Shown here: piece by piece, positions 27,693 to 64,000 of the stretch
How positions within the stretch are numbered: position 1 is the stretch's first letter
Layout: each line of letters opens with the position of its first letter
Assembly: GCA_963840455.1 (NCBI GenBank)
Contig: CAWIYV010000009.1
Location: 1-64,000 of the forward strand
Reading direction: 5' to 3'
From: Nitrospirota bacterium
Lineage (GTDB): Bacteria; Nitrospirota; UBA9217
DNA length: 64,000 nucleotides
Notes under the pieces: generated by a model
Seen by the model: only the letters and a program-made list of their open reading frames with translations
Told to the model about the DNA's origin: nothing
Databases searched by the model: none
Made by a program: the position numbers and the translations under genes

Positions 27693-27693
27693 C

Positions 27694-29276: not shown

Positions 29277-29293
29277 ACCAAGAAATACTTCTT

Positions 29294-29567: not shown

Positions 29568-29580
29568 CTTTAGATGTTCT

Positions 29581-29901: not shown

Positions 29902-29930
29902 GGAACCTGGAACAGGTATGGTAACGACAG

Positions 29931-29998
29931 GTCCCGACTGCGTCGGGACATACGGATAAAGGCGGTCGTAGGGTCGGCTTGTTTATTCATACCGAACC
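29931..29998. repeat. REP-like palindromes
   Basis: GTCCCGAC-tgc-GTCGGGAC (29931-29949) and GTAG-led GTAGGGTCGG..CCGAACC. Confidence 0.45.
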
Positions 29999-30048
29999 GT
30001 GTGCGGCGAAGCCGCCCGTGGTTATAGATCACTGATACAGGAGAAGGA

Positions 30049-31880: not shown

Positions 31881-31891
31881 GAGGTTCATTC

Positions 31892-33223: not shown

Positions 33224-34491
33224 GGTCTTTGCGTGTCCTTATGCTATTCCTTCTGGCCGCAGTCCTGGCGGGTCCATCCGTACAGGCGGCTCCGGCGGAG
33301 CAGGGGGCGGTCATCACGCTCTTCTGGGGCGAGGGATGTCCGCACTGCGAGCGGGAGAAGGTGTTTCTGAAAGATCTCGGGAAGAAGCATCCCGGCCTCC
33401 GGGTCAGGGACTACGAGGTCTGGAAGAACAAGGGCAACGGCGCACTCTACAAGCAGGTCCTGCGTACGGCCGGCATCAAGCAGGCGGGCGTTCCCACAAC
33501 CGTGGTGGGCACTGCGGTGTTCATGGGATTCAACGATCAAACGAGGAGGAGTATTGAGGAAGCCGTGAGCAGGTGCGTGCGAGACGGATGTCCGGACGGT
33601 GTTGCGGAGCTAAGCAAGCGGGAGTTGGCGCAAAATGCGGAAACAACGGGTATCGTGCGCATTCCATTCCTGGGCAGCATCGACCCAGCATCGGTGTCAC
33701 TGCCGGTCTTCACCATCATCATCGGAGCGCTGGACAGCTTCAATCCCTGCGCCTTCTTCGTCCTGCTGTTCCTGCTGAGCCTGCTGATCCATGCCCGGTC
33801 TCGGAAACGCATGTTCCTGATCGGTGGCATCTTCGTGCTCTTCTCGGGCCTCATCTACTTCTTGTTCATGGCCGCATGGCTCAACGTGTTCCTGGTCGTG
33901 GGCCAGATCGCGGCGATCACAGTAGCCGGCGGAATTGTCGCATTAGCTGTCGGGGGCATCAACGTGAAGGACTTCTTCTTGTTCAAACAGGGAGTATCGC
34001 TGGTGATCCCGGAATCGGCGAAGCCGAAGCTCTTCGAGCGGATGCGGGGTCTTTTGAAGGCCCCGACCATGCCCGCCATGATCGCCGGGACCATTGTCCT
34101 CGCCATCTCGGCGAACGCCTACGAGCTGCTGTGCACGGCCGGGTTCCCCATGGTCTACACCCGCGTGCTGACACTGCACAAACTCTCTTCCTTTCAATAC
34201 TACCAGTACCTCGTTCTGTACAACATCGTCTATGTCGTTCCCCTGGCCGTCATCGTTGCCGTCATCACGGTCACGCTGGGCGTCAGGAAACTGACCGAAT
34301 GGCAGGGGCGGCAGCTAAAGCTCGTATCAGGGCTGATGATGCTGTCGCTGGGGGCGGTGCTCATCGTGAACCCGGCGCTTCTGAACAACGCACTGGCCTC
34401 GGTCGTGATGCTGGCGGGAGTGCTCGCCGCCTCAGCGGTCATCATCATCGCGATGAAGTCGATGAGGCCGGAAATAGTGAAGCAGGTTTAA
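33220..34491 (+). CDS. exported glutaredoxin/thioredoxin domain fused to CcdA/DsbD-like membrane domain
   Basis: Signal peptide, GCPHC, GVPT cis-Pro, TM Cys motifs DSFNPCAF and ELLCTAG; TTG start overlapping the subunit B stop. Confidence 0.82.
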   Translation: MRSLRVLMLFLLAAVLAGPSVQAAPAEQGAVITLFWGEGCPHCEREKVFLKDLGKKHPGLRVRDYEVWKNKGNGALYKQVLRTAGIKQAGVPTTVVGTAVFMGFNDQTRRSIEEAVSRCVRDGCPDGVAELSKRELAQNAETTGIVRIPFLGSIDPASVSLPVFTIIIGALDSFNPCAFFVLLFLLSLLIHARSRKRMFLIGGIFVLFSGLIYFLFMAAWLNVFLVVGQIAAITVAGGIVALAVGGINVKDFFLFKQGVSLVIPESAKPKLFERMRGLLKAPTMPAMIAGTIVLAISANAYELLCTAGFPMVYTRVLTLHKLSSFQYYQYLVLYNIVYVVPLAVIVAVITVTLGVRKLTEWQGRQLKLVSGLMMLSLGAVLIVNPALLNNALASVVMLAGVLAASAVIIIAMKSMRPEIVKQV

Positions 34492-40815: not shown

Positions 40816-40938
40816 CAAAGATGTACGCATCCTTGCTAAACTTGGACTATTGCATTATAGTAATATGCATTCGTGAGCATATCGATTGCCTTGTCGGGTC
40901 ATCCTGAGCTCTCCTCTATGCATGGTGCGATCAAATTG

Positions 40939-41874
40939 ATGCGGGCCTGGGCTGCAGGTCTGACTGTCACGGTGTTTCTTCTATCGGGGACGGCCTTCGG
41001 TCTGACCGCAAATGATGAGATCAGCTCTTCCTTGAACGGTCTCCCTCTTCTGGACCATGCCGGGCATCTGTCCGTCGCTTATCGCATCCTTCCCGACCAC
41101 TTCGATAGTGCGCTCAATACGTCAGAACCCGGCCGGGAGGAGGCACCTGCCGCGCCGGGCGGCGACCGCACTGCCGTACCTTCCATCGGATATTATGCAA
41201 AGGAGTTCTTCCCCGACCTCTGGGGAGGCACGAAGAGGATCTTTTCCCGGGACAATCTTCCGCTCGCGCTGATCGGCGTGGGGCTGACCGGCCTCGCATT
41301 CACCGTGGACCATAAGGTCCAGAATTACTTCCAGGACAGAAAACCCCTGGAAGACGTCGAGAACATCGGGTACATTATCGGAGCCGGCTCCCCCGAAATC
41401 GTGGTCAGCTTTGCGCTTCTGGGAACGGGAGAGTTGATAAACAATAAAAGGCTGGCTGACACCGGCGTCGTGACGCTCCAAGCCTATCTGATCAACGGGA
41501 TCGCCACGTTGGGTCTGAAGTACGCGGTAGGGAGGGAACGCCCGGACGGCAGTGACCACTTGTCGTTCCCCTCCGGCCATGCATCGCTCACAGCCACGAT
41601 GGCTGCTTCCATTTCAGAGATGTACGACTGGGACCTCCGTCTGGCAATACCGCTCTATCTGACCGCGACATTTGTCGGGGCGACGAGGTTCCAGGCCAAT
41701 GAGCACTACCTGTCCGATGTTGTTGCCGGCATTACGCTGGGCACGCTCGTCGGGATAAGCGTTGCAAAATATCATAAGGAAAAAGACGCGAACAACGGCG
41801 CAGGAGCGGTCGTGACCATCATGCCGGTTGTCTCCAGTGACTACAAAGGGATCGTCCTCGACTGGAGATTTTGA
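40939..41874 (+). CDS. PAP2-family phosphatase
   Basis: KYAVGRERP, SFPSGH, TRFQANEHYLSDV; signal-like N-terminus; start uncertain. Confidence 0.85.
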   Translation: MRAWAAGLTVTVFLLSGTAFGLTANDEISSSLNGLPLLDHAGHLSVAYRILPDHFDSALNTSEPGREEAPAAPGGDRTAVPSIGYYAKEFFPDLWGGTKRIFSRDNLPLALIGVGLTGLAFTVDHKVQNYFQDRKPLEDVENIGYIIGAGSPEIVVSFALLGTGELINNKRLADTGVVTLQAYLINGIATLGLKYAVGRERPDGSDHLSFPSGHASLTATMAASISEMYDWDLRLAIPLYLTATFVGATRFQANEHYLSDVVAGITLGTLVGISVAKYHKEKDANNGAGAVVTIMPVVSSDYKGIVLDWRF

Positions 41875-48889: not shown

Positions 48890-48997
48890 TTGAATCCAGG
48901 AGCGAGCGTTTCCCCCGTAGCTTGCTGCGGGGTTAGCGTGCAATGAGAATAACGATAGTTCCTTGAGGATCGAAGATTCCCTGCAGCTTCCTGCAGG
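48890..48997 (+). mobile_element. copy of the IS200/IS605-like element with decayed right end
   Basis: TTGAA|TCCAGGAGCGAGCGTTTCCCCCGTAGCTTGCTGCGGGG..GATTCCCTGCAGCTTCCTGCAGG; terminal GAGCTTCAA lost. Confidence 0.82.
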
Positions 48998-50043: not shown

Positions 50044-51168
50044 ATGGCCGGCATAGAAATCATTGTCGTGGAAGGAGGATCGGACCTCAAGGCTTTCATT
50101 GATCTGCCATGGAGGATCTATGCTCGGTACCCAAACTGGGTCCCTCCCCTTAAAAAGGAGGTTCGCCGGGTGCTGGACACCCGCAAGCATCCGTTCTGGG
50201 AGTTTTCCGAGCGCATCCTCTTTCTGGCACGACGCGGTTCGGAGACGGTGGGAAGGATCGCGGGCATTGTAGATCATCGTTATATCCAATGCCACAACGA
50301 AAAGATGGGCACGTGGGGATTCTTCGAATGTGCCGACGATCCGGAGGCCGCGGCAGCCCTCTTCTCTTCCGTTGAGACGTGGGTCCGCCAGAAGGGGATG
50401 GCCTTCCTGAGAGGCCCGCTCAGCCCGTCGATGAATAACGAGGCGGGGTTGCTCATCGAGGGTTTCGATTATCCGCCTGCTGTGTCGATGACGTACAATC
50501 CGCCGTATTACCTCAGGCTGATCGAATCGTACGGTTTCACCAAAGAGAAGGACCTGCTGGCCTTTCTGCTGGATGGCGGCGATTACCGGCTTCCTGATTG
50601 GATGGACCGTCTTGCCGAGCGGACCGCCCAAAAAAAAGGTGTCTACATCAGGCACGTTGATCCGAAGAATCGGGATGCCGAGTTCGCCCTGATCAGGGAG
50701 ATATACAATAACTCCTGGTCCGGCAACTGGGGTTTCGTCCCCCTGACGGAAAATGAGATGCGGGACATTCAAAAAAGTGTGAAGCCCTTCGCGGACCCGG
50801 ACCTGGTGTTCTTCATCTATTATGAGAATGAACCCGCGGCGGTCTGCGTGATCTTTCCTGACATCAACCCTTTGCTTAAACGCCTCAACGGCCGGATCGG
50901 CCTGCTGGGTCTGCTCAAGGCGCTCATCTATCAGCGTGAGATCAGGGGATTGCGGTTGTTGATGTTCGGGATAAAGGAGAAATATCGACAGCTGGGGTTC
51001 CCCCTGTTGGCATTCCGCCACATCTATAAGATTGCGCGGGAAAATAAGAACTATCAGCATCTGGAGATGGGCTGGACCCTGGAGGACAATGAGTCGATCA
51101 ACGCATTGATAGGGGAAGCCGGCGCAAGAATATACAAGAAATATCGCATATTCAGAAAGGCTTTATGA
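50044..51168 (+). CDS. double-GNAT N-acyltransferase, YghO/bacterial ceramide synthase (bCerS)-like
   Basis: FIDLPWRIY..WVPPL, VGRIAG, GFFEC, RGPLSPS, GLLIEGF, YNPPYY, NWGFVPL, GWTLEDN, KKYRIF. Confidence 0.75.
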   Translation: MAGIEIIVVEGGSDLKAFIDLPWRIYARYPNWVPPLKKEVRRVLDTRKHPFWEFSERILFLARRGSETVGRIAGIVDHRYIQCHNEKMGTWGFFECADDPEAAAALFSSVETWVRQKGMAFLRGPLSPSMNNEAGLLIEGFDYPPAVSMTYNPPYYLRLIESYGFTKEKDLLAFLLDGGDYRLPDWMDRLAERTAQKKGVYIRHVDPKNRDAEFALIREIYNNSWSGNWGFVPLTENEMRDIQKSVKPFADPDLVFFIYYENEPAAVCVIFPDINPLLKRLNGRIGLLGLLKALIYQREIRGLRLLMFGIKEKYRQLGFPLLAFRHIYKIARENKNYQHLEMGWTLEDNESINALIGEAGARIYKKYRIFRKAL

Positions 51169-51359
51169 TCTAACACCGGGTTCCCAAAATACCTCCAGGA
51201 TTCGACGCGACGGCACAGAGATCGAGCATGCACATGCGCAGGCCCTGTTCGACCCGGCAGACCGCCGGCATTCTGCTTGCGAGGAGCGATCTCGATCATC
51301 AGAATCAGGGATCCGAGAGCCGACCGTTCTGTCGACGACGGCCAAATGGGAAATACCGA

Positions 51360-52196
51360 ATGAATGGGAAAGCAACCGAACGAGAATATCGAGCGCCTAT
51401 CCTCGTCGTGGCGATATTCCTGGCAGGGGTCGCGGCCGGTTGCGCCCACCGGCTCCATGCTCCGATGCAACCCGATGGCTGGAGTGCCCAGCCTATTGTG
51501 AGCGTGTGCCGCTTTGCCCCCGATGCCGACCTGGATCCCGCCACCGGAGCGCCTGTGGGGGACGAGGGGTATTACCTGTATATCCTGACCGAAGCTGCCG
51601 ATTGGGACTTCAGCGATGGGGCGTCGCTGGTCCTCTCAATTTGGCTGCGACCGTGGGCGCATGGTTGGATCATCCTGGAAAGTCCCTGGGATCGTCTGGA
51701 ATTCGGCCACACCGGCGACTTCGGGCAGGAGGCACCGCGTTATCATGAGGAAGTGATGCAGAGGGGTCGGGGTGGGGATCCCAATCCTATCGCGTATTTG
51801 TGGCAGACGAGGTCCGATGGCCAATTCCAGGTCGGCAAACCCAATCGACCACCCACGTTCGTCTGGAGAATGCCGATTACCCGACGACGGCATCAGCTGA
51901 TCAAGGAATACGTGATGCAGCGGAAGTACGACCAGTTCGGCGTGAGGAGCAACAACTGCACCGATTTGGTGGTGGAGGCAGCGGCGCTGGCGGGCATCAA
52001 TCTGAACCACCGCATTCGCCTCACCATGCCGTCAGAAACGAAGTTCTTGGGTCGGACGCTGCGTGTCTGGACGGACCCGCAATACCGCATCCTGGAGTTC
52101 AGCACGCCCGAAGTTTTGGAGATGGATCTGCGCCAGCTTGCCCAGATAGGGATAGGGAGTGATGCCACCGAGTGGTACCTGGCGCTGCAGCACTGA
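51360..52196 (+). CDS. lipoprotein with putative permuted papain-like (His..NNC) catalytic domain
   Basis: Lipobox VAAG-C after hydrophobic stretch; WAHGWI and RSNNCTD motifs. Confidence 0.5.
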   Translation: MNGKATEREYRAPILVVAIFLAGVAAGCAHRLHAPMQPDGWSAQPIVSVCRFAPDADLDPATGAPVGDEGYYLYILTEAADWDFSDGASLVLSIWLRPWAHGWIILESPWDRLEFGHTGDFGQEAPRYHEEVMQRGRGGDPNPIAYLWQTRSDGQFQVGKPNRPPTFVWRMPITRRRHQLIKEYVMQRKYDQFGVRSNNCTDLVVEAAALAGINLNHRIRLTMPSETKFLGRTLRVWTDPQYRILEFSTPEVLEMDLRQLAQIGIGSDATEWYLALQH

Positions 52197-52269
52197 CGGT
52201 CGCGCGGATACCCGGCCGTATCGGGTGGGATTGGTCCAACCGGCGAATTGCTATTATTAAGGTGAGTGT

Positions 52270-55200
52270 ATGACGTTGAAGCAGAGGTCTGACATCGTGG
52301 GTGAGCAGCGGGTTCCCATCATCGCTTTCGTCTGGCGGCCTGAGGAGATCACCCCACCGGTGATCCACATGGCTCATCGAACGGGGAGCAGGGCCATCTT
52401 CGATCTTTCCCTGATGGGGGTGGAAGGGTTGCATGCTTCCCTGCGAAAGGCTGACCCTGCCGGCCACGTAAGAGATATCAAGATCCCTGCCTCTGCCTTG
52501 ATGGATCCATCTTTGGGGCGGTTCCTTCGGGAAACAGGGGTCCAAGACATCTGGGTAGAATGCCACCCCCGGTTTTTCGAGGAGGATACCGCCACCGTTC
52601 TCCGGAGATTGAGCGAATTGTCGGAAAACCACCGTTGCTTTCCGATCGTCGGGGACCTGGATCTCCTGACAGCGATCTTGAAGGATAGCCCGGGAATCGG
52701 GCGCATCGTCCTGAAAGGATGCGAGGCCTCCGGATTCGTGAGCGGTGAGACGACCCTGGTGCTCTATTCGGCGGCCAGGGAAATGCTGCGCACCTCCTCG
52801 AAGTCCCTGGACGTCCTCATCTGGGGAGGCGTCTCCACCCCTGAGGCGGCAGCGGCGTTCCTGTCCACCGGGGCTTCCGGGATCGTCTTCGAGAGCGTCC
52901 ATTGGCTGACGGACCTCGTTGTCATTGATGATCTTCAACGCCAGCGGCTCGCCAAACTCCGCATGGATTCTACCGATCTGGTCGGCCTGGACCTGCAGGT
53001 TCCCTGCCGTCTTTTCAACAAGGGAAACTCTCTTGCGGTCAATGAGATCAAAACGTTCGAGAACACGCTGTGCGGAGCGGAGATCGCGGACGAAAGCCGC
53101 CGTTCCTTCGTAAACCACGTGCTTGCCAAAGCACACCACCCGCTGAAGAGCGATTTTACCCAGGATGAGGTCATCCCTCTGGGTGTGGAGGCTGCCTTTG
53201 CCGCCTCGTTCGTAGAGCGTTTCGGGGCTGGAACCGAGCAGGCCGTGAAAGCTTTCACGGACGAGATCCGGAACGCATGCCGCTCGGCCGGGGTGAAAAA
53301 GGACTTCTTCGTGGACAGCCCTGTCGCCAGGGAGATGGGAACCCGCTATCCCTTTATTCAGGGCGCCATGTCCTCCATCACCGATGTCCCGGAGTTTGCC
53401 TCGAAGGTCGCTGCTGCCGGCGGGTTGCCGACCATCGCCCTTGGCCTGATGGACGCGGAGGCCCTTGACCGGAGGCTGGGACGTTTGCCGGAGACCATGG
53501 AAGGGCGACCGTATGCCGTGAATGTCGTCTCTTTGGCGGAGAACCCTTTCCGGGAGACGCATCTTGCCTGGATAAAAAAACACCGACCCCGTTTTGTGGT
53601 GATCGCAGGAGGCGACCTCTCCCCCGTAAGAGAATTATTAGAGCGCGGCATGGAGGTCATGTATATCGCTCCTGATGAGGCCCTGTTGAGGCTCGCCCTT
53701 GAAGCCGGCGTCCGGTACGTGGTCTGCGAGGGATATGAGGCCGGCGGCCACGTCGGGCGACAGAGCACGCTCACCCTTGCTCAGATCGTGCTGGATCTGA
53801 AACGGCGCAATCCATCCCTCTTCCACAACCGTCGCGTGATCCTTGCAGGGGGGATCTGCAATCGGGAGACCGCATTCATGGCCGCCATGCTCGGCGCGGA
53901 CGGCATCCAGATGGGCACTGCCTATCTGACCACCCGGGAGATCGTTGAAACGGGCGCCTTGACTGCGCTCTATCAGCGGATGATCGTGGAATCGTCTCCA
54001 GGGGGGACAGTCGTTTCCGGCCAGAACACCGGACTTCGGGTGCGATCCTTATGGACCCCGAGAGTGGCAGCTCTTTTATCCCTGGAGAGGGAGTTTGCAG
54101 CGGGCCACCAGGACGAGCGTTCCTTCCGGACGAGAATGGAGGAGGTGACCGCGGGGAGCCTCTTCACTGCGGCCCGGGGTCTGGACAGAACGGACGGAAC
54201 GCCTCTGAATGAGCGGGATTGCCTGGAGCGCGGGCAATTCATGAGCGGGGCCTGCGCCGGTCTCATGAGCAAGGTCCAGGATCTGCAGTCCTTTCATCGC
54301 GAGCTGGCCGAAGGCCCTCTGGTGCTGCACGGGGCAGCCCCATCCGCCGAGGCCGGGCATGGACCGACGCGAGTCGCCCCCCGGGGCGGCGCTCATGAAA
54401 GGATCGCCATCACGGGGATGAGCCTCCTGAACGCCCTGGGGAAGAGTCCGGAGGAAGTCTGGGCCGCAAGCCTGGCGATGAAGAGCGGGATCACCCTGGT
54501 TCCGTCTTCCCGATGGGATCATGGGCTTTTTTACGATCCCCAGCCGCACGTTCCGGACAAGACCTACTGCCAGGTGGGCGCCTTCCAGGATTATACTATC
54601 TCCCGTAATGATCTCGGGATCTCCCCCCAGGATTTTCGAAGCATGACCGAGGCCACAAAGATCACCCTGTGGCTGGCAGACAGGGCCATCCGGGCCTCGG
54701 GCATTTTGGAGTCGGACATCCCGCGCGAACGGATCGGGGTCCTCATCGCCCAGAACTCGGGAGAGGCGGCAGGGACCCTCAACAATACCATCATCAGGGC
54801 GTACATTCACGACATCCTTGCCGACATCAAGAAGGCCGTTCACGCCACGCCAGGTCAGTTGAACGCCATCGAAGAGGAGCTGAAGTCCGGACGCATGGCA
54901 CCGGATGACACCACGCTCCTCGGAAGACTCAACTGCGCTGCGGCAGGCTTCATCTGCAACCGGTATGGGTTCACGGGGCCGAGCTTTGCGGTCTCCGCTG
55001 CCTGCGCCACCTCGCTGGTCGCACTCCACAGCGCCGTCCAGATGATCCGAACCGGCATCATCGATGCTGCCATTGTCGGAGGGGGCGAGGAGAATCTCAC
55101 CCATCTGCATTTTCTGGAATTCTCCGCCCTGGGCGCGCTGTTCGGGATGTCCGGACAGGAAAGACCCGCTCGCGAGACATCCCGCCCCTTCGATGCCGAA

Positions 55201-58200
55201 CGGGACGGGATGGTGCTCGGCGAAGGCGGGGGAATGATCGTCATCGAACGGGAAGGCCTGGCCCGCGCACGGGGGGCGCTTGTCCACGCCGTCATCACCG
55301 GCATGGGAGCGAGCAACAACCATCTGGGCATGGTGGAGTCCTCCCATGTCAGCCAGGAGATGGCCATCCGGGCCTCGTTCCGGGGGATGCCCTACGGGCC
55401 CGATGCGGTGGACCTCGTGGAATGCCACGCCACGAGCACCCGGCAGGGAGATGTGGAGGAGATCCGCGCCCTGAAAGCAGTCTTCAATTCCTCCCGGCGA
55501 ACCGCGCTCACCTCATTCAAATCCCAGATCGGACACACCCTGGGCGCCTCAGGGATGAACAGCCTCATTCGGGGGGTCATGGCCATGAAGGCGGGGGTTT
55601 TCCCTCCCACCCTCAATTATCTGCATCCAGACCCGGAAATCGGCTTGAACGGATCGGGTCTCCACATTACCCCGGAGCCGATCGATTGGAAGGGCAGGGA
55701 CAACCAGCCAAGACGGCTTCAGGTCAACGCCTTCGGATTCGGAGGTTCCAACTACGTTGTGCAGGTGGAGCAGGCCATGGATGAAGTGGATACGGTCCTG
55801 GTCTCCGCGGGTGGGGGGGCCCGTCTCGCTGAGGAAAAGAGCGGTGCTTCACCGCCGCCCCAGGGCGTCTCCTTCTTCCGGACCCAGATGGGCCGCCGTA
55901 CCTTCCGGATGGCCGTTGTGTCGCAAACCGAGGAGGAAGCGCTGAATTTCATCGAGAGGTCAGCCTCTCTTGACGAAGCCGGAACCGTTTCACCCAAGGC
56001 GTTGCAGTCCCTGGCGCACCAGGGGATCTTCCTGGGCCCTGAAGATCAGCAGGCGCCACCGCTCGCTTTTGTGTTTCCCGGGCAGGGGTCACAGTATGCA
56101 GGAATGGGGCGGGATCTCTACGTGTCCTTTCCCGTCATCAAGGAGTGGATGGATCGGGCTGCGGCTGCAGCGGACTTCGACCTCCTTCACTTATTGTTCC
56201 ATGATCGGGAGGAAAATCTTCAGAAGACCCGGTGGCAGCAGCCTGCCATGTTCGCCGTTGAACACGCCATGGCTCGATACCTCATCACCCTTGGTATTCA
56301 CCCGGTGGCTATGGCCGGCCACAGTCTGGGCGAGCTGACCGCTTTGTGCCTGGCCGGCGTCTATTCCCTGGAGGACGGATTCCGGATCGTGAACAAGCGT
56401 GCCCTCTGCATGGACAAGGCCGCTGCCATGAACGTGGACCCCGGCGTCATGGCGGCCACGGACGCCCCTCTGGATCTGCTGAAGGAGCTGATCCGGGGAC
56501 GGGAGGATGTCCATATCAGCAATATCAATTCACCGAAGCAGGTCGTCCTGAGCGGCAACACGGAGGCGGTCAAAACTTTTGGAAACAGCCTCAAGGAAAG
56601 GGGATACCGGGCCACGCTGCTGCGGGTCAGCATGGCCTTCCACTCACCTATCATGAGGGTCATCCATGATGAGCTCTCGGCGTACGTTGCCACCATCCCA
56701 TTTTATTCCCCGCGCATTCCCGTCATCTCCAACACGACCATGGCGCCCTATCCGTCGGATCCCGGCGAGATCAGGCGGATCCTGATGGCCCACCTGGAAT
56801 CTCCCGTCCAGTGGATGAATAACGTCCAGACGCTTTGGAACGACTACGGTGTCCGGCTTTTTTTGGAGGCGGGCCCCGGCGACATTTTAAGCGGTCTCAT
56901 CGCAGACACACTGTCTGATCCGGCATGCGTGCAGACCTGCCTTCCCACCGCAGAGAGCCTGACCTACAAGACCGCCCTTGCTCAGCTCTTCGCCCAAGGG
57001 CATCTGAAGATTGCAGGAGAACCGAGGTTTGTTTCCCTCCCTGCGTTCAGGAAGGCTGCCGGATCTCACCCGGTCGCCCAAGCAGCGCCGTCACGACCGT
57101 CGGAGCCCGGGCTCGTCGGTTCCAATCCTGCGGAAAGGATCATTCAAAGAGAGATCAACCGCTTCGTGATGGAGAATTTCGGACGCTTCCTTAAGCCCAC
57201 TATCCTGGACGCCATCCGCCAGGAGCTTGATCCGACATTCCAGGAAGCCGATCTGGCATCCGTTGTGAAATCCATGCTCGGGAGTCCGGGGTACCCTGAA
57301 CGCCGGAAGGAGATCCCGGACGGACAGGTTTCCCCTGCCCCCGGCGAGGCGCCGGAACGCCGGGATCACCTGGAGGCGCTTATTCGCATCATCATGGATG
57401 CCACGGGATTCAACAGGGACGAGATCAAACCCGACATGGACCTCAGGAGGGACCTCTCCATCCGCTCCAGCCGCCTCCCCATAATCATGGATGCTGCGGA
57501 ACGGCAATTCGGGATCACGATAGAATTGGAGGATTTTATCCAGGTCCGTACCGTGAAGGACATCGCGGATAAGATCTCCGAGATAATCGCCAGGCAGGAA
57601 GGCACAAGCCAGCCGCCATCCACCACTGCTGTCGACGCAGGTCCGGCGCGGGATGAAATCCTGAAATCTCCCGAGAACGAGGCCAGTTTAAAGCGGCTCG
57701 TTTTCAACCACGTCACTGCAGATCTGGCGGCCTCCGTCCCTATGGAATTGAGCCCAGGCGAGTCAGTCCTTCTTCTCTCACCTGGGCAGGATGACGGGAC
57801 CGCCGGAAGCGCAGGGGACATCCTCCGGCGGGATTATGGGGCTCACACGGTTCCCCTGCACTTCATGCAGGGGAACCCGGGTTCGGGCGAAGAGTACCAC
57901 GACCTTCTGACCGATGAAGGGTCCACCAGCGCGTCAGAGAACATATCGGCCCTGACGTCCCTCGCCGGGATGGTCATCACCTTGCATCAAGGCGGGTCCG
58001 GAAGGTTACAAGGCATGGCAGAGGTCTCGCGGCTTCTCAGGGGGCTCTTTCTCCTCCTGAAGGCCTTCCTCCGATCACCGGTCAAGAAATTCGTCGTGCT
58101 GATCCATTCCCGGGAGGATACCGCAACTCCCGGCCGGCTGCTGGCAGAGGGGATGCTCGGACTGTTTCTCAGCGCAGCGCAGGAGCATTCATCGGTCCGG

Positions 58201-60099
58201 TTCCGCACCCTGGAAGTCGGACGGGATACCGACCTGCGCGCTGCCTTGCGCGGTGCTCTGGACGGAGGATACGCCGCGGTTGAGATGATCCATCGTGATG
58301 GAAGCGTCTACACCTCTGAGGGGCAGGTAAGCCCGTCGAACTTCAAGGACCTGTCGAGTCTGGATCTGAACCCGGGAGACGTTGTTGTCATGTCCGGGGG
58401 CGCAGCCGGGATTACCGCCCACCTGGCCCGCAGCCTTGTGCCCTTCGCACCCCGCCTGGTGCTTCTGGGGAGGACACCTGCGTCTTGCCCCGAAGAACAC
58501 AGGGCATCGGAGATCGCTCGGACCCTGGCTGATCTGCACGCTGCAGGGATCGAGGCAACGTACCATACCTGCGATGTGACCGATCCCGATGCGGTCCGCG
58601 CTCTCTTGGGCGAGGTGGCAAGCCGTTACGGCAGGATCGACGGGATCATTCACGGCGCCGGGGTCCTCAGGGACGGACCCCTCAGCCAAATGACGCCGGA
58701 TGATTTCTCCATGGTCACGGATGTAAAATTCCTCGGGGCCTGGAATCTCTTCTCGGCCGCAGAAGGGGCCGGCTTGAGGTTTTTCGTGGGCCTCTCCTCG
58801 GCGGCAGCGATCCAGGGGAATCCCGGTCAGGCCAATTACGCTGCCGCCAACCGGATGATGTCCGCGTTGCTCAGGACCCTCCGCCGTAAGAACGGCGCCA
58901 TCCGCTTCAAGGCGTTGATGCTTCCCCCTGTCGATGGAGCGGGCATGGCCGACGATCCGGAGGTCCGGGAGCTGCTGAGGCGGAAGGGCGTGGCGTACAT
59001 CCACGTCAATGAGCTTGCAGGGCTTTTCTGCCGGGAGCTCTTCACCGCCCGCGTGGACGATGATTGGGTGATGTTCATGCGGAGACTGCCATCCGTGAGG
59101 ACGTCACTGCTCAATGATACGATCCGTCCTTCGTTCGGTGGAGAACTGGAGGGAGGCACCGTGTCCTTCAGTCCCGAGGACTTCCCCATGATAGAAAGGG
59201 TCTCTTGCCTGGACCTCCGCCGGCAAGAACTGGAGGCCTTCAGATCCTTTTCCCGGGAAAAGGATCTGTGGATCGCGGATCACCGGCCCTTCAAGTTCGT
59301 CAAGCATCCTCTGGTCTCAGCCGCCATGGTCCTGGAGACATTCATGGAAGCCGCCCGGATCCTCTACCCCCACCTGCAGGTGCGTGGAGTCCGCCAGGTG
59401 CGGCTCATGGACATGATCCAATGTCCTCCCGGGGTTCCACGGCCTTCCCGGATATCCTGCCGCCGGGCCGGCACCGGCGCCGGTCTTCGGGAAGTGGTGT
59501 GCGAGGTCTCTCTGGCAACACAGGAGATCTCCCCCACCGGGAGATTGACCGACCGCTTCATCCCGCACTGCACGGGCCAAGTGATCCTCGATGGCGGGGG
59601 AGGAGATATCGGGGAGGGGCTCCCGGATTTTCCTGTCCGGATGGACGAACTGCGGACGAGGCCCATGGATCATAAAAAGGTGTTAAAATTTTACACAGAC
59701 CATAGCGGCCTCGAAGGCCGGTATCGCGTGATGGAGGCTCTTGACGGCGCAGGTCACGGGGTGGTGCGGGGCCGGACCGCCTACCGGGAGACAAGTGATT
59801 TCGCACATCTGCGGAACGCACGGTACCAATACTCTCCTTATCTGTTCGAGGCTCTTTTACAGCTGGTCGGCTTCCATATCGCTGCAATGGACCCATCGGA
59901 GCGACGATCTCTGATTCCCCTGGAGATCGGGGAGATGAGGTTCTTGCGAACATGCCGGGTGGGGGAACAGATAACCCTGGAGGCCCGAATGCGGGCGCAA
60001 GACGCGGAAGGCCTCGCCTGGGACGCCAGAGGGCTTGACGATCAAGGCCGCACCATCATGCAGGTCCATACGATGCGAATGCACTGGGTTTCGGACTGA
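52270..60099 (+). CDS. iterative type I PKS/FAS: (FabK-like')-FabK/PfaD-like ER-KS-AT-ACP-KR-DH
   Basis: ER: YPFIQGAM, EAGGHVG, LAGGI; KS: AACATS, ECHATST, KSQIGH; AT: FPGQGSQ, GHSLG, AFHS; ACP: DLSIRSS; KR: SGGAAGI, HGAG, GQANYAAAN; DH: WIADH..P, EALLQ. Confidence 0.9.
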   Translation: MTLKQRSDIVGEQRVPIIAFVWRPEEITPPVIHMAHRTGSRAIFDLSLMGVEGLHASLRKADPAGHVRDIKIPASALMDPSLGRFLRETGVQDIWVECHPRFFEEDTATVLRRLSELSENHRCFPIVGDLDLLTAILKDSPGIGRIVLKGCEASGFVSGETTLVLYSAAREMLRTSSKSLDVLIWGGVSTPEAAAAFLSTGASGIVFESVHWLTDLVVIDDLQRQRLAKLRMDSTDLVGLDLQVPCRLFNKGNSLAVNEIKTFENTLCGAEIADESRRSFVNHVLAKAHHPLKSDFTQDEVIPLGVEAAFAASFVERFGAGTEQAVKAFTDEIRNACRSAGVKKDFFVDSPVAREMGTRYPFIQGAMSSITDVPEFASKVAAAGGLPTIALGLMDAEALDRRLGRLPETMEGRPYAVNVVSLAENPFRETHLAWIKKHRPRFVVIAGGDLSPVRELLERGMEVMYIAPDEALLRLALEAGVRYVVCEGYEAGGHVGRQSTLTLAQIVLDLKRRNPSLFHNRRVILAGGICNRETAFMAAMLGADGIQMGTAYLTTREIVETGALTALYQRMIVESSPGGTVVSGQNTGLRVRSLWTPRVAALLSLEREFAAGHQDERSFRTRMEEVTAGSLFTAARGLDRTDGTPLNERDCLERGQFMSGACAGLMSKVQDLQSFHRELAEGPLVLHGAAPSAEAGHGPTRVAPRGGAHERIAITGMSLLNALGKSPEEVWAASLAMKSGITLVPSSRWDHGLFYDPQPHVPDKTYCQVGAFQDYTISRNDLGISPQDFRSMTEATKITLWLADRAIRASGILESDIPRERIGVLIAQNSGEAAGTLNNTIIRAYIHDILADIKKAVHATPGQLNAIEEELKSGRMAPDDTTLLGRLNCAAAGFICNRYGFTGPSFAVSAACATSLVALHSAVQMIRTGIIDAAIVGGGEENLTHLHFLEFSALGALFGMSGQERPARETSRPFDAERDGMVLGEGGGMIVIEREGLARARGALVHAVITGMGASNNHLGMVESSHVSQEMAIRASFRGMPYGPDAVDLVECHATSTRQGDVEEIRALKAVFNSSRRTALTSFKSQIGHTLGASGMNSLIRGVMAMKAGVFPPTLNYLHPDPEIGLNGSGLHITPEPIDWKGRDNQPRRLQVNAFGFGGSNYVVQVEQAMDEVDTVLVSAGGGARLAEEKSGASPPPQGVSFFRTQMGRRTFRMAVVSQTEEEALNFIERSASLDEAGTVSPKALQSLAHQGIFLGPEDQQAPPLAFVFPGQGSQYAGMGRDLYVSFPVIKEWMDRAAAAADFDLLHLLFHDREENLQKTRWQQPAMFAVEHAMARYLITLGIHPVAMAGHSLGELTALCLAGVYSLEDGFRIVNKRALCMDKAAAMNVDPGVMAATDAPLDLLKELIRGREDVHISNINSPKQVVLSGNTEAVKTFGNSLKERGYRATLLRVSMAFHSPIMRVIHDELSAYVATIPFYSPRIPVISNTTMAPYPSDPGEIRRILMAHLESPVQWMNNVQTLWNDYGVRLFLEAGPGDILSGLIADTLSDPACVQTCLPTAESLTYKTALAQLFAQGHLKIAGEPRFVSLPAFRKAAGSHPVAQAAPSRPSEPGLVGSNPAERIIQREINRFVMENFGRFLKPTILDAIRQELDPTFQEADLASVVKSMLGSPGYPERRKEIPDGQVSPAPGEAPERRDHLEALIRIIMDATGFNRDEIKPDMDLRRDLSIRSSRLPIIMDAAERQFGITIELEDFIQVRTVKDIADKISEIIARQEGTSQPPSTTAVDAGPARDEILKSPENEASLKRLVFNHVTADLAASVPMELSPGESVLLLSPGQDDGTAGSAGDILRRDYGAHTVPLHFMQGNPGSGEEYHDLLTDEGSTSASENISALTSLAGMVITLHQGGSGRLQGMAEVSRLLRGLFLLLKAFLRSPVKKFVVLIHSREDTATPGRLLAEGMLGLFLSAAQEHSSVRFRTLEVGRDTDLRAALRGALDGGYAAVEMIHRDGSVYTSEGQVSPSNFKDLSSLDLNPGDVVVMSGGAAGITAHLARSLVPFAPRLVLLGRTPASCPEEHRASEIARTLADLHAAGIEATYHTCDVTDPDAVRALLGEVASRYGRIDGIIHGAGVLRDGPLSQMTPDDFSMVTDVKFLGAWNLFSAAEGAGLRFFVGLSSAAAIQGNPGQANYAAANRMMSALLRTLRRKNGAIRFKALMLPPVDGAGMADDPEVRELLRRKGVAYIHVNELAGLFCRELFTARVDDDWVMFMRRLPSVRTSLLNDTIRPSFGGELEGGTVSFSPEDFPMIERVSCLDLRRQELEAFRSFSREKDLWIADHRPFKFVKHPLVSAAMVLETFMEAARILYPHLQVRGVRQVRLMDMIQCPPGVPRPSRISCRRAGTGAGLREVVCEVSLATQEISPTGRLTDRFIPHCTGQVILDGGGGDIGEGLPDFPVRMDELRTRPMDHKKVLKFYTDHSGLEGRYRVMEALDGAGHGVVRGRTAYRETSDFAHLRNARYQYSPYLFEALLQLVGFHIAAMDPSERRSLIPLEIGEMRFLRTCRVGEQITLEARMRAQDAEGLAWDARGLDDQGRTIMQVHTMRMHWVSD

Positions 60100-60147
60100 G
60101 CCTTGACGGTGGAGTAAGAACGCACCTCGGGCTCGGGAAAGAGGGGA

Positions 60148-60930
60148 GTGGATGTGGCAACGGATCACGAAGGGATAACCGCCCATGCCGTAACGTTCGA
60201 TCATCGAAGGGGACCTGTCTTCTATGCGTCCTTGCCCTGTAGGCCACGTGCCACTGAAACCCTCATCGGATACAGGACGAACGAGGCAGGAGAAAAGCAC
60301 CGCTTAGTCTCCATCCTGTGGGATCACCTTGCGGCGATGGAAGGCCCTCTTGGGAAATTCTGTCAATCCTCCAACAGAGTCGCCAACCCGATTCAGGTGG
60401 TCCGCGGCCCGCTGGGCAAGCCCCATCTCCTGTTGGGTGAGCATCGGGGGCCGGCTGTCTCCTTCAGCGAAGGTGGAGGGAAAGTTTGGGCCGCCCTCTG
60501 TGGGGATGGGTCCGATATCGGCATCGACGTGGCAGGGACCGACGAATTTCGGGGAGAATACCCCTTCCATCGGGTCTTTCATACACAAGAGCTTCAGCAT
60601 GCATCGATGTTGACAGGCGGAGATTTGGCAAAGGCATCAGCCCTGCTCTGGTCCATCAAGGAAGCCGTTGTCAAGGCTCTCGGATGCGGGTTCCATCTCG
60701 TGGATCCGAGGGAAATCTCCATCCATCCTTCAGAAGAAGAGGGCGGCGGGTATGCCTTTTCCGTGTGTCTATCAAAGAAGACCCAGGTGCGGTTCGCCAA
60801 TCGTGCCGGCTCGTCCCTAGGGGTACGTTCATTTCCCCGGCAGAAGACGTGGCTTTCCATCGCCCTCTTGAATCCAGGAGCGAGCGCATTCCCCGCAGCT
60901 TGCTGCGGGGTCAGCGAGCGATTAGAATAA
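60148..60930 (+). CDS. 4'-phosphopantetheinyl transferase (Sfp-like); C-terminus derived from a mobile element
   Basis: LGKP, VSFS, IGIDV, WSIKEAVVKALG; last ~19 codons lie inside the element. Confidence 0.88.
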   Translation: MDVATDHEGITAHAVTFDHRRGPVFYASLPCRPRATETLIGYRTNEAGEKHRLVSILWDHLAAMEGPLGKFCQSSNRVANPIQVVRGPLGKPHLLLGEHRGPAVSFSEGGGKVWAALCGDGSDIGIDVAGTDEFRGEYPFHRVFHTQELQHASMLTGGDLAKASALLWSIKEAVVKALGCGFHLVDPREISIHPSEEEGGGYAFSVCLSKKTQVRFANRAGSSLGVRSFPRQKTWLSIALLNPGASAFPAACCGVSERLE

Positions 60931-60984
60931 ATAATACTACCTAGAGGATCGAGGATTCCTGCAGCCTGCCGCAGGGAGCTTCAA
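60868..60984 (+). mobile_element. full-length copy of the IS200/IS605-like element inserted in the PPTase 3' end
   Basis: TTGAA|TCCAGGAGCGAGCGCATTCCCCGCAGCTTGCTGCGGGG..GCAGGGAGCTTCAA. Confidence 0.88.
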
Positions 60985-60993
60985 TCGGCAACC

Positions 60994-62175
60994 ATGAATA
61001 ACCTTACCTGGAAGTGCGTGCCACGGCTGGACGGAGCGTCGCCGGCGGATCTGGGACGGCTCTTTCCGGAGCCTTCTTTCACCGCACCGCTCCTTGGTCT
61101 GCTGCAGGAATCGGGTATTGACGGTTTTAACCTGCGGAGCATCGTGGTGTTAAAAGATGATGCCCCTATTCTCTTATTGCCTCTGTTTGAATTCCATTTT
61201 GATCTGTCCACGTTTGCGGAGGGATGGACCAGGAGATCGCTGAAAGCGGCAGCCCGTCTCATCCCCTCAATTTTTCATCCTCGTGTTCTCGGCGTGGGGC
61301 TGTTGGAAGGGGGATGGAGCGAGATCGGCATGGATCCTCAGATCGATGCCGGCACCCTTGAGGCGGCATGGAAAATGGCCCTGGACGCCTTGCAAGCGCT
61401 CGCGATCGGACTGAAAAGCGACGTCGTGGTGTTTTACAACTTTCATGATCATGGCAAACTCCCCGGGGACGTATTCATAAAGTTCAACCGGGTGCCATGG
61501 CTTCCCGGCGGCCGGCTGCCGATTGCTTTTAGCAGCGTGGAAGAATACGTAAGCCGCCTTTCCGGTGCCGCGAGAAAGGATCTGCACCGCAAAATGCGCG
61601 CCTCCCACGAGGTCAGGGTGGTCCGAAGCCGAGACATTGCTCCTTTTCTGGACAGGATCTACAGGCTTTATCGGGAAGCAGTGAAGCGGAGCCCCCTGGC
61701 GTTTGGCGTGCACAACCGTGTATTTTTTGAAAAGATCTGCGAGAGGATCCCGGGCGCCGAGTACACGCTCTATTTTGTGCAGGAAGAACTGGCCGCTTTC
61801 AATCTCCTCATCGTAAGACAAGAAGCGTTGGTGGATAAATATTTCTGCATGGATTACGAGCTCGGCCGCAAATACAACCTGTATGTTCTGTCCTGGCTTG
61901 AGAATGTCCGCTTCTGCGTGGAGCAAAAGATCCCCCTCTATCACGCAGGTCAGGGCGCGGAGAGAACCAAGGCGCACCTCGGTGCGACGTTCATCCCGAA
62001 CCTTATCTTATTCAAGCACCGCTGGTCGGTGTTTGACCGTTTTCTTTTTGAGCGGCCGGCAATGATCGAAAAGGTCCTCAGATACCTCGGGTTCAGGCCC
62101 GTCGTCTCCCCCCTCGCCGCCCCGCAGGCACCGGTTCCGGGGCCGGCAGGAGCACATCCCTGTTCGCCGCCTTGA
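60994..62175 (+). CDS. GNAT-fold protein, FemAB-like/Acetyltransf_6 type
   Basis: FSSVEEYVSRLSGAARKDLHRK, FFEKI, AAFNL, DKYFCMDY, NLY, AGQG..KAHLGA. Confidence 0.7.
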   Translation: MNNLTWKCVPRLDGASPADLGRLFPEPSFTAPLLGLLQESGIDGFNLRSIVVLKDDAPILLLPLFEFHFDLSTFAEGWTRRSLKAAARLIPSIFHPRVLGVGLLEGGWSEIGMDPQIDAGTLEAAWKMALDALQALAIGLKSDVVVFYNFHDHGKLPGDVFIKFNRVPWLPGGRLPIAFSSVEEYVSRLSGAARKDLHRKMRASHEVRVVRSRDIAPFLDRIYRLYREAVKRSPLAFGVHNRVFFEKICERIPGAEYTLYFVQEELAAFNLLIVRQEALVDKYFCMDYELGRKYNLYVLSWLENVRFCVEQKIPLYHAGQGAERTKAHLGATFIPNLILFKHRWSVFDRFLFERPAMIEKVLRYLGFRPVVSPLAAPQAPVPGPAGAHPCSPP

Positions 62176-62286
62176 TCCGACCGCGCAGGCGAATGGACTC
62201 AGGCGGGGCGAGCGTCTTCAGCGCCCGAAAAATGCCGGACGTTACGGCGCTCAATACCGCTGCACCGGAGAGGAAGAATTTGATCC

Positions 62287-63243
62287 ATGATGAAAGAAGC
62301 TGAGCACGCGATCGAAGTCGAGAGGCTGACGAAGCGTTACGGTGATCTGCCGGCGGTCAACGATATATCGTTTACCGTCAGGAAAGGCGAGGTGTTCGCG
62401 TTCCTGGGACCGAACGGCGCCGGCAAGACCACGACCGTCGAGATCATCGAGACGATCCGCACGCCCACATCCGGCAACGTAACCCTTCTGGGAATGGACG
62501 TCACGAAGAAAAAACACGACATCGTCTCCCGCATCGGCGTCCTGCCGCAGGAGTTCAGCTCGTTCGACCGGATAACGGTCAGAGAGACCGTGCAGTACTA
62601 TGCTCGGCTGTTCTGCTCCAGGAACACCGATATCGACGGGCTGATAGAGCTCGTGAACCTCAAGGACAAGACCAAAGAGCAGTACAAGACCCTCTCCGGG
62701 GGATTGCGGCAGCGCTTGGGAATCGCGATCGCGCTCGTGAACGACCCCGAGGTCGTGTTCCTCGACGAACCGACGACAGGGCTCGACCCCCGGGCACGGC
62801 GCGAGGTTTGGGAAGTTCTGCAGGGCCTGAAGAAAAAGGGGAAGACGGTGTTCCTGACCACGCACTACATGGAGGAGGCGGAGCTTCTTGCAGACACGGT
62901 CGCGATCATCTCGAAGGGGAAGATCATCGCGATGGGCTCTCCCGGGGAACTCATCGAAAAGAACGCGAATTACCTGGTCCTCACGCTGCAGTCCGTCGAT
63001 GAACAAGCCTTTGACATCGTCCGGAAGATGGGCTTCGAGCCGGTCCGTAACGACCACAATGTCATCAAGATCAGGGTGGAGCACCAGGACGATGTGCAGA
63101 ATATCCTGAACGCCATCAAGGATGTCGGGGCGTCGTACCTCGGCCTGGACGTCCGGAAGCCCAACCTTGAAGAAGTCTTCCTGAAGCTCACCGGCGAGGC
63201 GCTCAGCAACGTTCCCGTCGGCGGAAGGGGGGGGGCGGAATGA
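62287..63243 (+). CDS. ABC-2 type exporter ATP-binding subunit
   Basis: [32 protein letters not shown]. Confidence 0.95.
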   Translation: MMKEAEHAIEVERLTKRYGDLPAVNDISFTVRKGEVFAFLGPNGAGKTTTVEIIETIRTPTSGNVTLLGMDVTKKKHDIVSRIGVLPQEFSSFDRITVRETVQYYARLFCSRNTDIDGLIELVNLKDKTKEQYKTLSGGLRQRLGIAIALVNDPEVVFLDEPTTGLDPRARREVWEVLQGLKKKGKTVFLTTHYMEEAELLADTVAIISKGKIIAMGSPGELIEKNANYLVLTLQSVDEQAFDIVRKMGFEPVRNDHNVIKIRVEHQDDVQNILNAIKDVGASYLGLDVRKPNLEEVFLKLTGEALSNVPVGGRGGAE

Positions 63244-64000
63244 ACCTGCGCGTCGTCGCCGCAAATCTCGTCGTGAAACTCAGGTGCTTCTACCGCGAGA
63301 AGACCGCCATGTTCTTCACCCTAGCGTTCCCGATAATCCTGATACTCGTGTTCGGCACGATCTTCATGAGCGAAGACAACGTGAGCTACCATCTTTGCGT
63401 GCAGGACCTCGACCGGACACAGTCGTCTGCAGAGTCCATCAAGACCCTCGAGCTCAACGGGAAATTCAAGATAACCACGGTCGACCCTGCCGTCAACGCC
63501 GCGCAGTACGTCAGGACCAACAGGGTGAACCTTGTCCTCGTTATTCCCGAAGGCTATGAACGGTCCCTCCTGCAGAGGATGATGCTCGACGATATCAAGG
63601 CATCCGTCACCATCACCTATATCTACGACCCCAGCTCATCCTCGGTGGCGACGAAGATGGAGATCCTGAACGCAGTGCTCGCCGGCATGAACCAGAAAAT
63701 GTCCGGGAAACCGCCGTTCATCAAGTCGGTGGAGCGATCGATCCTCACCAAAAAATACCGGTTCATCGAGTTCTTCGTTCCCGGCATCATTGCGATGGCG
63801 GTGATGACGTTGAGCCTGTTCGGAACGGTGGACTCGGACACGGAGCTGCGGCAGAAGGGCATCCTCAGGAAGCTGTCCACCACGCCCATCACCCGCACCG
63901 ACTGGATACTGTCGAACATCCTGTACCAGTTCATCCTCGCGGTCCTATCCACGATCGCGATGCTGCTGGTGAGCTACGCCGTGTTTCATGTCAGCCTGCA
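63240..64000 (+). CDS. ABC-2 type exporter permease (truncated by window end)
   Basis: ATGA overlap; MNLRVVAAN..FFTLAFPIILILVFG, extracytoplasmic loop, FFVPGIIAM, ELRQKGILRKLSTTP; frame open to 64000. Confidence 0.9.
   Translation, partial: MNLRVVAANLVVKLRCFYREKTAMFFTLAFPIILILVFGTIFMSEDNVSYHLCVQDLDRTQSSAESIKTLELNGKFKITTVDPAVNAAQYVRTNRVNLVLVIPEGYERSLLQRMMLDDIKASVTITYIYDPSSSSVATKMEILNAVLAGMNQKMSGKPPFIKSVERSILTKKYRFIEFFVPGIIAMAVMTLSLFGTVDSDTELRQKGILRKLSTTPITRTDWILSNILYQFILAVLSTIAMLLVSYAVFHVSL

Follow-up and report, generated by a model that had tools for sequence, protein, structure and literature searches.

Bacterial ceramides are known from a pathway of Caulobacter crescentus and Escherichia coli BL21(DE3) that comprises AasR, AcpR, Spt, bCerS (YghO) and CerR (PMC9386255, PMC11087976, PMC11324152). 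This canonical pathway is described, in the available text of two of these papers, without a megasynthase (PMC11087976, PMC11324152). Clustered in BL21 are yghO, a fatty acyl-AMP ligase (FAAL), an epimerase-family reductase, an acyl carrier protein (ACP) and the serine palmitoyltransferase (SPT) gene spt, with no type I synthase annotated. Polyketide synthase (PKS)-derived sphingolipids are also not new, because the PfSgaAB system of Pseudomonas fluorescens MYb115 uses an iterative PKS and its fixed partner, an SPT, to make C24-28 sphinganines and their phosphoglycerol forms; the available description includes no N-acyltransferase (PMC12134224). A third comparison is offered by the Type P synthase ArsA of Azotobacter and Beijerinckia, which makes C22-26 chains (PMC3098273) and passes fatty acids directly from its ACP to the type III PKSs ArsB/C (PMC6274091). 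Here, we analyze a gene cassette that begins at position 50,044 of a 64,000-nucleotide window (C9:1-64000; contig CAWIYV010000009.1 of assembly GCA_963840455.1) from a Nitrospirota bacterium whose genome comprises 4.03 Mb in 14 contigs.

We lean somewhat toward the view that this is a mobile sphingolipid cassette, in which a large synthase would make an amide-linked chain and GNAT1, a putative N-acyltransferase, would release that chain onto a sphingoid base. This view is favored because GNAT1 is a fixed and co-inherited partner of the synthase, whereas the SPT is absent, multiply recruited or equipped with its own acyl-loading domains. An original prediction, made from the window, had reported at least seven co-oriented genes for an amide lipid. 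All seven are present in the same orientation, as judged from the open reading frames (ORFs) and their translations, with intergenic gaps of about 190, 73, 48, 63, 111 and -4 bp. An eighth gene, for a B12-binding radical SAM protein of 450 amino acids, lies just past the window (C9:64454-65806). The features are as follows.

50044..51168, forward strand: GNAT1, an N-acyltransferase of the YghO/bCerS family (374 amino acids; alignment to YghO), predicted to be a dedicated ceramide synthase
51360..52196, forward strand: predicted lipoprotein of permuted papain-like NlpC/P60 fold (278 amino acids; alignment and structure model), an optional gene
52270..60099, forward strand: single-module fatty acid synthase (FAS)/PKS of 2609 amino acids with pseudo-enoyl reductase (pseudo-ER), enoyl reductase (ER), ketosynthase (KS), acyltransferase (AT), ACP, ketoreductase (KR) and dehydratase (DH), presumed to be iterative (Pfam, NCBIfam, motifs)
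52270..53304, forward strand: putative pseudo-ER, synthase residues 1-345 (profile alignment to residues 346-690)
53305..54339, forward strand: FabK/PfaD-like ER domain with His494 (PF03060, E 4e-19; TIGR03151 FabK, E 1e-36, below its cut-off)
54397..55779, forward strand: KS with Cys912, His1053 and His1089 (Pfam, motifs)
56062..56949, forward strand: AT with Ser1352 and His1458 (Pfam, motifs)
57376..57570, forward strand: ACP domain with predicted attachment site Ser1733 (Pfam, motifs)
58384..58890, forward strand: catalytic part of the KR with Tyr2190 (Pfam, motifs)
59167..60099, forward strand: C-terminal PKS-type DH with His2338 and with Glu2527 at the acid position; start approximate (PF14765 at residues 2483-2607, E 1e-10)
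60148..60930, forward strand: phosphopantetheinyl transferase (PPTase), a core gene (PF01648)
60994..62175, forward strand: GNAT2, of the Acetyltransf_6 type, optional (Pfam)
62287..63243, forward strand: ATPase of an ABC-2 exporter, resembling DrrA/NodI but scoring under the named-family cut-offs (Pfam, NCBIfam)
63240..64000 and on to C9:64358, forward strand: ABC-2 permease of 372 amino acids (Pfam; ORF continued past the window)

GNAT1 aligns end to end with YghO of E. coli K-12 (32% identity over 372 amino acids, E 8e-69) and shows 32% identity to the BL21 protein, as expected from its earlier assignment to the YghO family. The kinship is taken from these direct alignments; neither sequence nor profile searches found a match in Pfam, NCBIfam or the PDB. 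The protein contains no hydrophobic segment. Published work lists yghO (ECD_02850) and Caulobacter CC_1154 side by side for the acyl-CoA N-acyltransferase step in dihydroceramide synthesis (PMC9386255). In two trees, both made by quick methods that omit bootstrapping, synthase-linked GNATs form a clade of their own apart from spt-linked ones (support 100 and 99); in the first of these trees, the nearest neighbors of GNAT1 are Nitrospirota records. Three cassette-carrying genomes also encode, away from the cassette, natural SPT-YghO fusions of 775-786 amino acids (L102:7405-9732, L103:5426-7786, L104:3621-5957), which tie the YghO family to SPT. By alignment, GNAT1 is a full-length protein of the YghO/bCerS family; in the trees it falls in the clade linked to the synthase, and we predict it to be a dedicated ceramide synthase. 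A complex prediction for GNAT1 with the ACP scored 0.00 and was counted neither for nor against an interaction.

Pfam identifies in the synthase an NMO/FabK-like ER, a KS, an AT, one ACP, a KR and a C-terminal DH. Neither a thioesterase nor a terminal reductase domain was found by Pfam, which agrees with the original prediction that the protein has no release domain. Motif conservation was evaluated by aligning the window protein and 52 homologs (every second full-length match). Of the catalytic residues, Cys/His/His in the KS, Ser/His in the AT, His in the ER, Tyr in the KR and His in the DH are all invariant or nearly so (52-53 of these 53 rows). The motif around AT His1458 is one that we take to be of the malonyl-loading type. 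At the ACP, Ser1733 is preceded by an invariant Arg where Asp is usual. One ACP is present here and two in tandem are found in seven related loci.

The first 345 residues have no Pfam match. When compared with the protein's own ER (residues 346-690), they show 24% identity over 195 columns at E 5.7e-4, with a probability of only 29%, and the ER His position is occupied by Phe156 in all 53 rows. We interpret this region as a putative degenerate copy of a FabK-type ER domain, which would probably form an internal dimer with the active ER.

The domain content suggests a single-module type I FAS/PKS resembling ArsA-type fatty acid synthases, with presumed iterative action. ArsA, whose layout is ER-KS-malonyl acyltransferase (MAT)-ACP-KR (PMC3098273), shares with the window protein this ER-led order, an N-terminal degenerate ER region and the lack of a thioesterase. 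Unlike ArsA, the window synthase carries a C-terminal DH and one ACP (one or two among its relatives), its partner is a GNAT rather than type III PKSs, and its predicted product is an amide lipid rather than an alkylresorcinol. No type III PKS genes were found among the recurrent neighbor families of the cassette. The closest plasmid match is a Beijerinckia type I synthase (29% identity over 1528 columns, aligned from residue 147), which is followed by two type III PKS-like genes and a PPTase-family gene and corresponds to the Type P (ArsA) cluster of PMC3098273. Two other assignments were rejected. A polyunsaturated fatty acid synthase (PfaA-E) does not fit because TIGR02813 scores 422 bits against a cut-off of 1010, and because the protein lacks the second unit of KS and chain-length factor (CLF) and the three or more tandem ACPs of that class, having one KS and one ACP (at most two ACPs in its relatives). 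A Type S identity is ruled out by domain order, which is ER-KS-CLF-AT-KS-ACP3-KR in that class (PMC3098273).

Evidence for a dedicated pairing comes from related loci. A genome scan confirmed 156 stretches, and the best 80 of them gave 71 loci; these come from many phyla and nearly all from metagenome bins, with three genomes counted twice. Among the best 120 protein clusters, synthase identity over the first 1200 residues is 74-88%. The cassette is found at 66-88% synthase identity in Thermodesulfobacteriota, Nitrospirota, Planctomycetota, Acidobacteriota, Verrucomicrobiota, Lentisphaerota and others, and is spread among oxygen-avoiding bacteria. Because the arrangement recurs across many phyla, it is not a product of chance. 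GNAT1 lies directly upstream of the synthase in 49 of the 50 loci with at least 1.5 kb of upstream DNA, the PPTase follows it in 56 of 57, and the ABC ATPase is present in 46 of the 50 loci with enough downstream DNA. The co-occurrence of the PKS with its GNAT, on which the original prediction depended, therefore holds for GNAT1, both here and in a second sample described below.

Genes for sphingolipid synthesis recur near the cassette. Where at least 9 kb is available on both sides (28 loci, hereafter full-flank loci), an SPT-like gene lies within about 10 kb in 15, a cerR-like gene in 14 and either one in 19. For comparison, with 1-4 of these genes in a genome of ~4 Mb, an SPT-like gene would be expected nearby by chance at a rate of roughly 1-2%. 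The SPTs are of at least three types: stand-alone proteins, fusions with YghO, and fusions of FAAL, ACP and oxoamine synthase. The last occur in seven full-flank loci, all seven of which also have a cerR-like gene. With 1100-1210 amino acids (L035:6235-9810 and ten other loci), this fusion is a one-chain version of AasR-AcpR-Spt; its last domain has an SPT as its best PDB match (E 3e-71), and its FAAL part is 33-36% identical to the BL21 enzyme. Because FAAL and ACP are fused to the SPT-like domain, the SPT in these seven loci has its own acyl supply. Further recurrent neighbors are PAP2_3 and PLD proteins, sulfatase/phosphoethanolamine-transferase-like membrane proteins and a diacylglycerol (DAG)-kinase-like gene; the predicted functions of the PAP2_3, PLD, sulfatase-like and DAG-kinase-like neighbors suit head-group chemistry.

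The pattern of divergence differs between the two candidate partners. Across the same 14 loci, the pairwise divergence of GNAT1 tracks that of the KS (rho 0.81), and the divergence of SPT does not track the KS (rho 0.16); median pairwise identity is 76% for GNAT1 and 38% for SPT. The GNAT1-synthase pair also persists through gene-order swaps at 43-49% synthase identity. In the converse search, 123 of 401 genomes of one phylum contained a YghO-family match. Matches with at least 70% identity to GNAT1 all precede a synthase (7/7, two of them already in the locus set), those at 39-45% all adjoin spt or cerR-like genes (11/11 examined), and four of the 14 at 46-58% adjoin a distant synthase, with the order swapped in three.

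The second sample is a single family (G119), of whose 151 genomes 20 carry the synthase; in all 19 of these with upstream DNA, GNAT1 immediately precedes it. Nine operons of this family read GNAT1, synthase, PPTase, ABC pair, radical SAM/SPASM protein, unknown gene, SPT-like gene (8/9) and short-chain dehydrogenase/reductase (SDR; 7/9). The best NCBIfam model for this SDR is 3-ketodihydrosphingosine reductase, at 312 bits against a cut-off of 400. Most genomes of the family also encode a ~3900-amino-acid synthase, about 30% identical, that starts with the same degenerate-ER and ER region and is probably the Type S synthase proposed as a core FAS.

Some other features of the related loci were recorded. 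A family of 320-340 amino acids that matches nothing in Pfam or NCBIfam (L075:13119-14144, L190:5824-6792) accompanies SPT in seven of its eight full-flank loci. One genome carries two copies of the cassette (L030 and L046). At several loci in long-read-type bins (L031, L043, L055, L069) the synthase is in pieces, which may reflect sequencing frameshifts.

The E. coli Spt query matches only contig C7 in the host genome, as expected from the earlier statement that the window has no SPT. A search of the rest of the genome for spt and cerR, which the original prediction had called for, located an spt-like, cerR-like and bCerS-like trio there: at 404129-407613, genes for a reductase, for an oxoamine synthase and for another member of the YghO family follow one another. 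The oxoamine synthase has bacterial SPTs as its top PDB matches (E 3e-129) and SPT as its best NCBIfam model, below the cut-off. Within the host genome, it is the reductase that best matches the BL21 epimerase (29%), and GNAT1 is 39% identical to the YghO paralog. The host operon (C7:404129-408197; L022:7130-11198) further includes a membrane protein of 195 amino acids that has no family match. It is faced by a PAP2_3 gene (C7:408174-408875), a 42% homolog of the cassette-linked PAP2_3. Because this gene faces an operon of reductase, SPT-like and bCerS-like genes, the arrangement suggests that the host lineage makes ceramides with a polar head group. Of 36 host-family genomes, 26 have the host SPT at 81-97% identity and one was found to have the synthase, so the cassette here resembles a patchily distributed addition to a ceramide pathway that is older.

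With its spt-like and cerR-like partners in the genome or in the cluster, the system resembles the canonical ceramide pathway. What sets it apart is a distinct second clade of bCerS, to which a dedicated type I synthase, a PPTase and an ABC-2 pump are linked. Like PfSgaAB(C), it has a single-module type I PKS, presumably iterative, that is tied to sphingolipids, and some relatives have an SPT and a KDSR-like SDR in the operon (PMC12134224). In contrast to SgaAB, the fixed partner is a bCerS homolog; the two are likened by description rather than by SgaA sequence or domain order. An oxoamine synthase gene adjoining the PKS as its fixed partner, which is the mark of SgaAB, is absent from this locus.

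From gene content, domains, motifs, family relations and linkage, we infer the following chemical steps, chain length, hand-off from ACP to GNAT1 and pump cargo. The PPTase would prime the ACP, and the synthase would then use malonyl-CoA to build, iteratively, a reduced acyl chain that is probably long or very long. Because the synthase has no thioesterase, the chain would remain ACP-bound until GNAT1 transfers it to a (3-keto)sphingoid base, at the amine. The spt and reductase genes on C7 would provide this base in trans in the host, as would genes of this kind inside the cluster in many relatives; the present locus thus appears to be a case of action in trans. Removal of the ceramide-type lipid from the cytoplasmic leaflet would fall to the ABC-2 pump. 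Optional tailoring, such as a second acylation or C-methylation, may come from GNAT2, the lipoprotein and the B12 radical SAM protein. The transfer from ArsA to ArsB/C is a precedent for a direct hand-off from the ACP of a related release-less synthase (PMC6274091).

Several points weigh against release onto a sphingoid base. Enzyme activity and product are predictions from the genes. The link from GNAT1 to Caulobacter bCerS runs through the listing of yghO as the CC_1154 ortholog and not through direct alignment, and the role of YghO in E. coli is itself given as proposed in the available text of that source (PMC9386255). The SPT-like genes score 580 and 497 against an NCBIfam SPT cut-off of 640, and the fused SPT-like domain scores higher with BioF (355) than with SPT (318). 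Neither spt nor cerR-like genes are nearby in nine of the 28 full-flank loci, and in some carrier genomes the oxoamine-synthase matches are all weak (35-40%) and of no assigned class. Among the 14 relatives at 46-58% identity, three adjoin B12 radical SAM genes and seven have no synthase or spt nearby, which indicates that the GNAT1 family is not tied only to ceramide. One distant synthase paralog (39%) in the G119-family set has no GNAT nearby. In addition, the shared divergence of GNAT1 and KS is a sign of joint inheritance and not of function, and related genomes are not independent.

These points bear on three other explanations. The synthase might instead supply the long-chain base, or both chains, with SPT condensing serine or alanine with the ACP-bound chain and GNAT1 being specialized for N-acylation of the resulting unusual base from an ordinary acyl donor. 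SgaAB, in which an iterative PKS and an SPT yield C24-28 sphinganines, sets a precedent for this arrangement (PMC12134224). It is also suggested by the G119-family operons, where the SPT-like gene (8/9) and an SDR closest to 3-ketodihydrosphingosine reductase (7/9) share one operon with the synthase; in the eight operons with the SPT-like gene, the queries used found no FAAL or free ACP. The SPT, however, is absent from 13 of the 28 full-flank loci and is far more variable than GNAT1 in type and sequence (38% vs 76% median identity). In the host family, where SPT is widespread and the synthase is not, the SPT is not specialized for the synthase. We consider this explanation, the foremost of the three, unlikely. 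Somewhat less likely still is that GNAT1 acylates a non-sphingoid amine (an amino acid, polyamine, lipoprotein or surface acceptor) and that the sphingolipid genes merely mark a lipid-gene neighborhood. The orphan GNAT1 relatives (seven of 14) fit this explanation, as do the lack of spt at the present locus and the inclusion of the lipoprotein N-acylase LnsA among permuted NlpC/P60 enzymes (PMC7387801). Against it stand the spt or cerR-like genes that 19 of 28 full-flank loci have next to the cassette, in several independent arrangements; the head-group type genes near the cassette (PAP2_3, PLD, sulfatase/phosphoethanolamine-transferase-like); and the 42% PAP2_3 homolog that also flanks the host spt operon.

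It is very improbable that the synthase is a spare general FAS for bulk membrane lipids, with its neighbors as hitch-hikers. For Desulfobacterium autotrophicum, a related ER-led Type S synthase has been suggested to act as core FAS (PMC3098273), and the ~3900-amino-acid ER-led synthases are present in most genomes of one family. In that family, however, the synthase studied here is an extra, carried by 20 of 151 genomes and placed beside GNAT1 in every case with upstream DNA (19/19), and contig C14 of the host holds a cluster of stand-alone FabF-, FabD- and FabG-like matches. A host-family relative has another kind of cluster (L025:10574-17998, L026), with a 2474-amino-acid ER-led synthase (31%), a second PKS, a free ACP, and sulfatase-like, CoA-transferase-like and radical SAM-like genes.

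Release of the synthase-made chain onto a sphingoid base thus remains our preferred explanation. The earlier proposal that one or both GNATs offload the chain onto an amine is largely supported for GNAT1 by this comparative evidence, and the amine can be narrowed to a predicted sphingoid base. GNAT2, in contrast, is not a core gene (10 of 28 full-flank loci). Likewise, GNAT1 belongs to the core of the proposed unit of GNATs and lipoprotein, whereas the lipoprotein is optional (11/28). The radical SAM gene is present in 15 of 28; among the ten loci with GNAT2, nine also have the lipoprotein and nine the radical SAM gene.

The start of the lipoprotein was set at the ATG at 51360, where most homologs begin, and residues are counted from there. 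The His/Cys lipoprotein described earlier is borne out by an alignment of 20 sequences, in which His101, His117, Cys200 and a lipobox-like Cys28 are invariant. In 110 aligned rows, the first His and the Cys are invariant and the second His is kept in at least 90%; the lipobox-like motif is lost in some homologs. The structure model (pLDDT 96) gave as its top fold matches TseH (Z 10.7; root-mean-square deviation 3.9, 138 aligned), YiiX (Z 7.8) and Bacillus cereus 3kw0 (Z 7.1), and Foldseek returned no match at E<=0.001. The His-before-Cys order and the fold are those of the permuted papain-like NlpC/P60 group (YiiX, TseH, LnsA, PLAAT), of which several known members bind or transfer fatty acids (PMC3142127, PMC7387801). 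The lipoprotein is about 10-16% identical to the solved members of this group, belongs to no Pfam family and forms its own family of about 240 representatives. Because the YiiX pocket holds a fatty acid (PMC3142127) and the acyltransferase LnsA is placed in the same group (PMC7387801), a role for the modeled protein as an extracytoplasmic, possibly periplasmic, lipid acyltransferase or amidase is plausible.

GNAT2 matches Acetyltransf_6 (26.5 bits, cut-off 22) and falls below the cut-off for the FemAB-like PF04339 (19.5 against 27). No PDB relative was found, and its structure model reaches a pLDDT of 37 from an 18-row alignment. We considered GNAT2 as the partner domain of the 775-786-amino-acid SPT fusions and rejected it, as those carry a YghO-family domain and give no match to the GNAT2 profile. 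A search for longer forms of GNAT2 returned only one N-terminally extended ORF. Three distant homologs adjoin aminotransferase and membrane-transferase genes, not a synthase. The radical SAM protein has B12-binding and radical SAM domains and the three-Cys motif. HpnJ, BchE and ladderane-type assignments were rejected, since the best score is 98.6 bits against a cut-off of 577.6 for HpnJ, and no named family fits. C-methylation by this protein is a conjecture based on its class.

Upstream of the cassette lie a PAS protein and a CheB/CheR fusion, neither of which is among the recurrent neighbors of related loci, and unrelated signaling genes begin downstream of the radical SAM gene. A promoter and terminator scan of the cassette gave a signal near shuffle level. 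An RNA search found two runs with small shares, in which short contigs cover parts of the cassette; mostly below 95% identity, these do not demonstrate transcription in this organism. A dispersed repeat of ~120 bp with two short hairpins, which looks like a REP- or MITE-type element, occurs in the window at 60865-60990, 17912-18029, 29339-29459, 31737-31856 and 48890-48997. Genome-wide it has 222 merged sites, 163 of them at least 100 bp long, and one copy provides the last ~20 codons and the stop of the PPTase gene. The window also contains a PAP2-family protein at 40873-41874, 8 kb upstream of the cassette and not recurrent in related loci; a V/A-type ATP synthase operon (subunits I, C, A and B) at 25427-33223; and ORFs with no Pfam match at E<=1e-5 at 33220-34491 (423 amino acids), 36587-38593 (668) and 6455-7795 (446), some of which may be shadow frames.

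In the open-access literature searched, we found no report of a bCerS homolog paired with its own synthase and no characterized cluster of this gene make-up; PMC13291983 contains none of six sphingolipid or GNAT terms. The cassette is widespread, joins two known kinds of pathway and is undescribed in that literature. The original prediction of an undescribed pathway holds for this pairing, but not for PKS-derived sphingolipids as such, given SgaAB (PMC12134224).

Classes of 1-deoxyceramide that combine ordinary bases of C18-22 with acyl chains of C32-34, and up to C39, have been reported from the Black Sea; they are known from no organism and are linked by co-abundance to Desulfobacterota and/or Bacteroidota (PMC11334938). 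The word polyketide does not occur in the available text of that report. It is conceivable, though doubtful, that the cassette is a route to N-acyl ceramides of about C30 and above in anoxic habitats, such as these 1-deoxyceramides, and that direct hand-off to a dedicated ceramide synthase from the ACP of a release-less synthase with an internal pseudo-ER/ER pair is a third way to bacterial sphingolipids. We offer the connection with the Black Sea lipids as a hypothesis; most named carriers of the cassette come from other settings.

The cassette is predicted most likely to make a sphingolipid with an unusual fatty-acid tail. If this is true, a megasynthase that makes the amide-linked chain would be a new route to bacterial sphingolipids. 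It would also provide a gene-level candidate for the very-long-chain ceramides of anoxic water, which have no known producer or pathway (PMC11334938). Given 66-88% synthase identity across many phyla, the product could then be a widespread membrane lipid and sediment biomarker.

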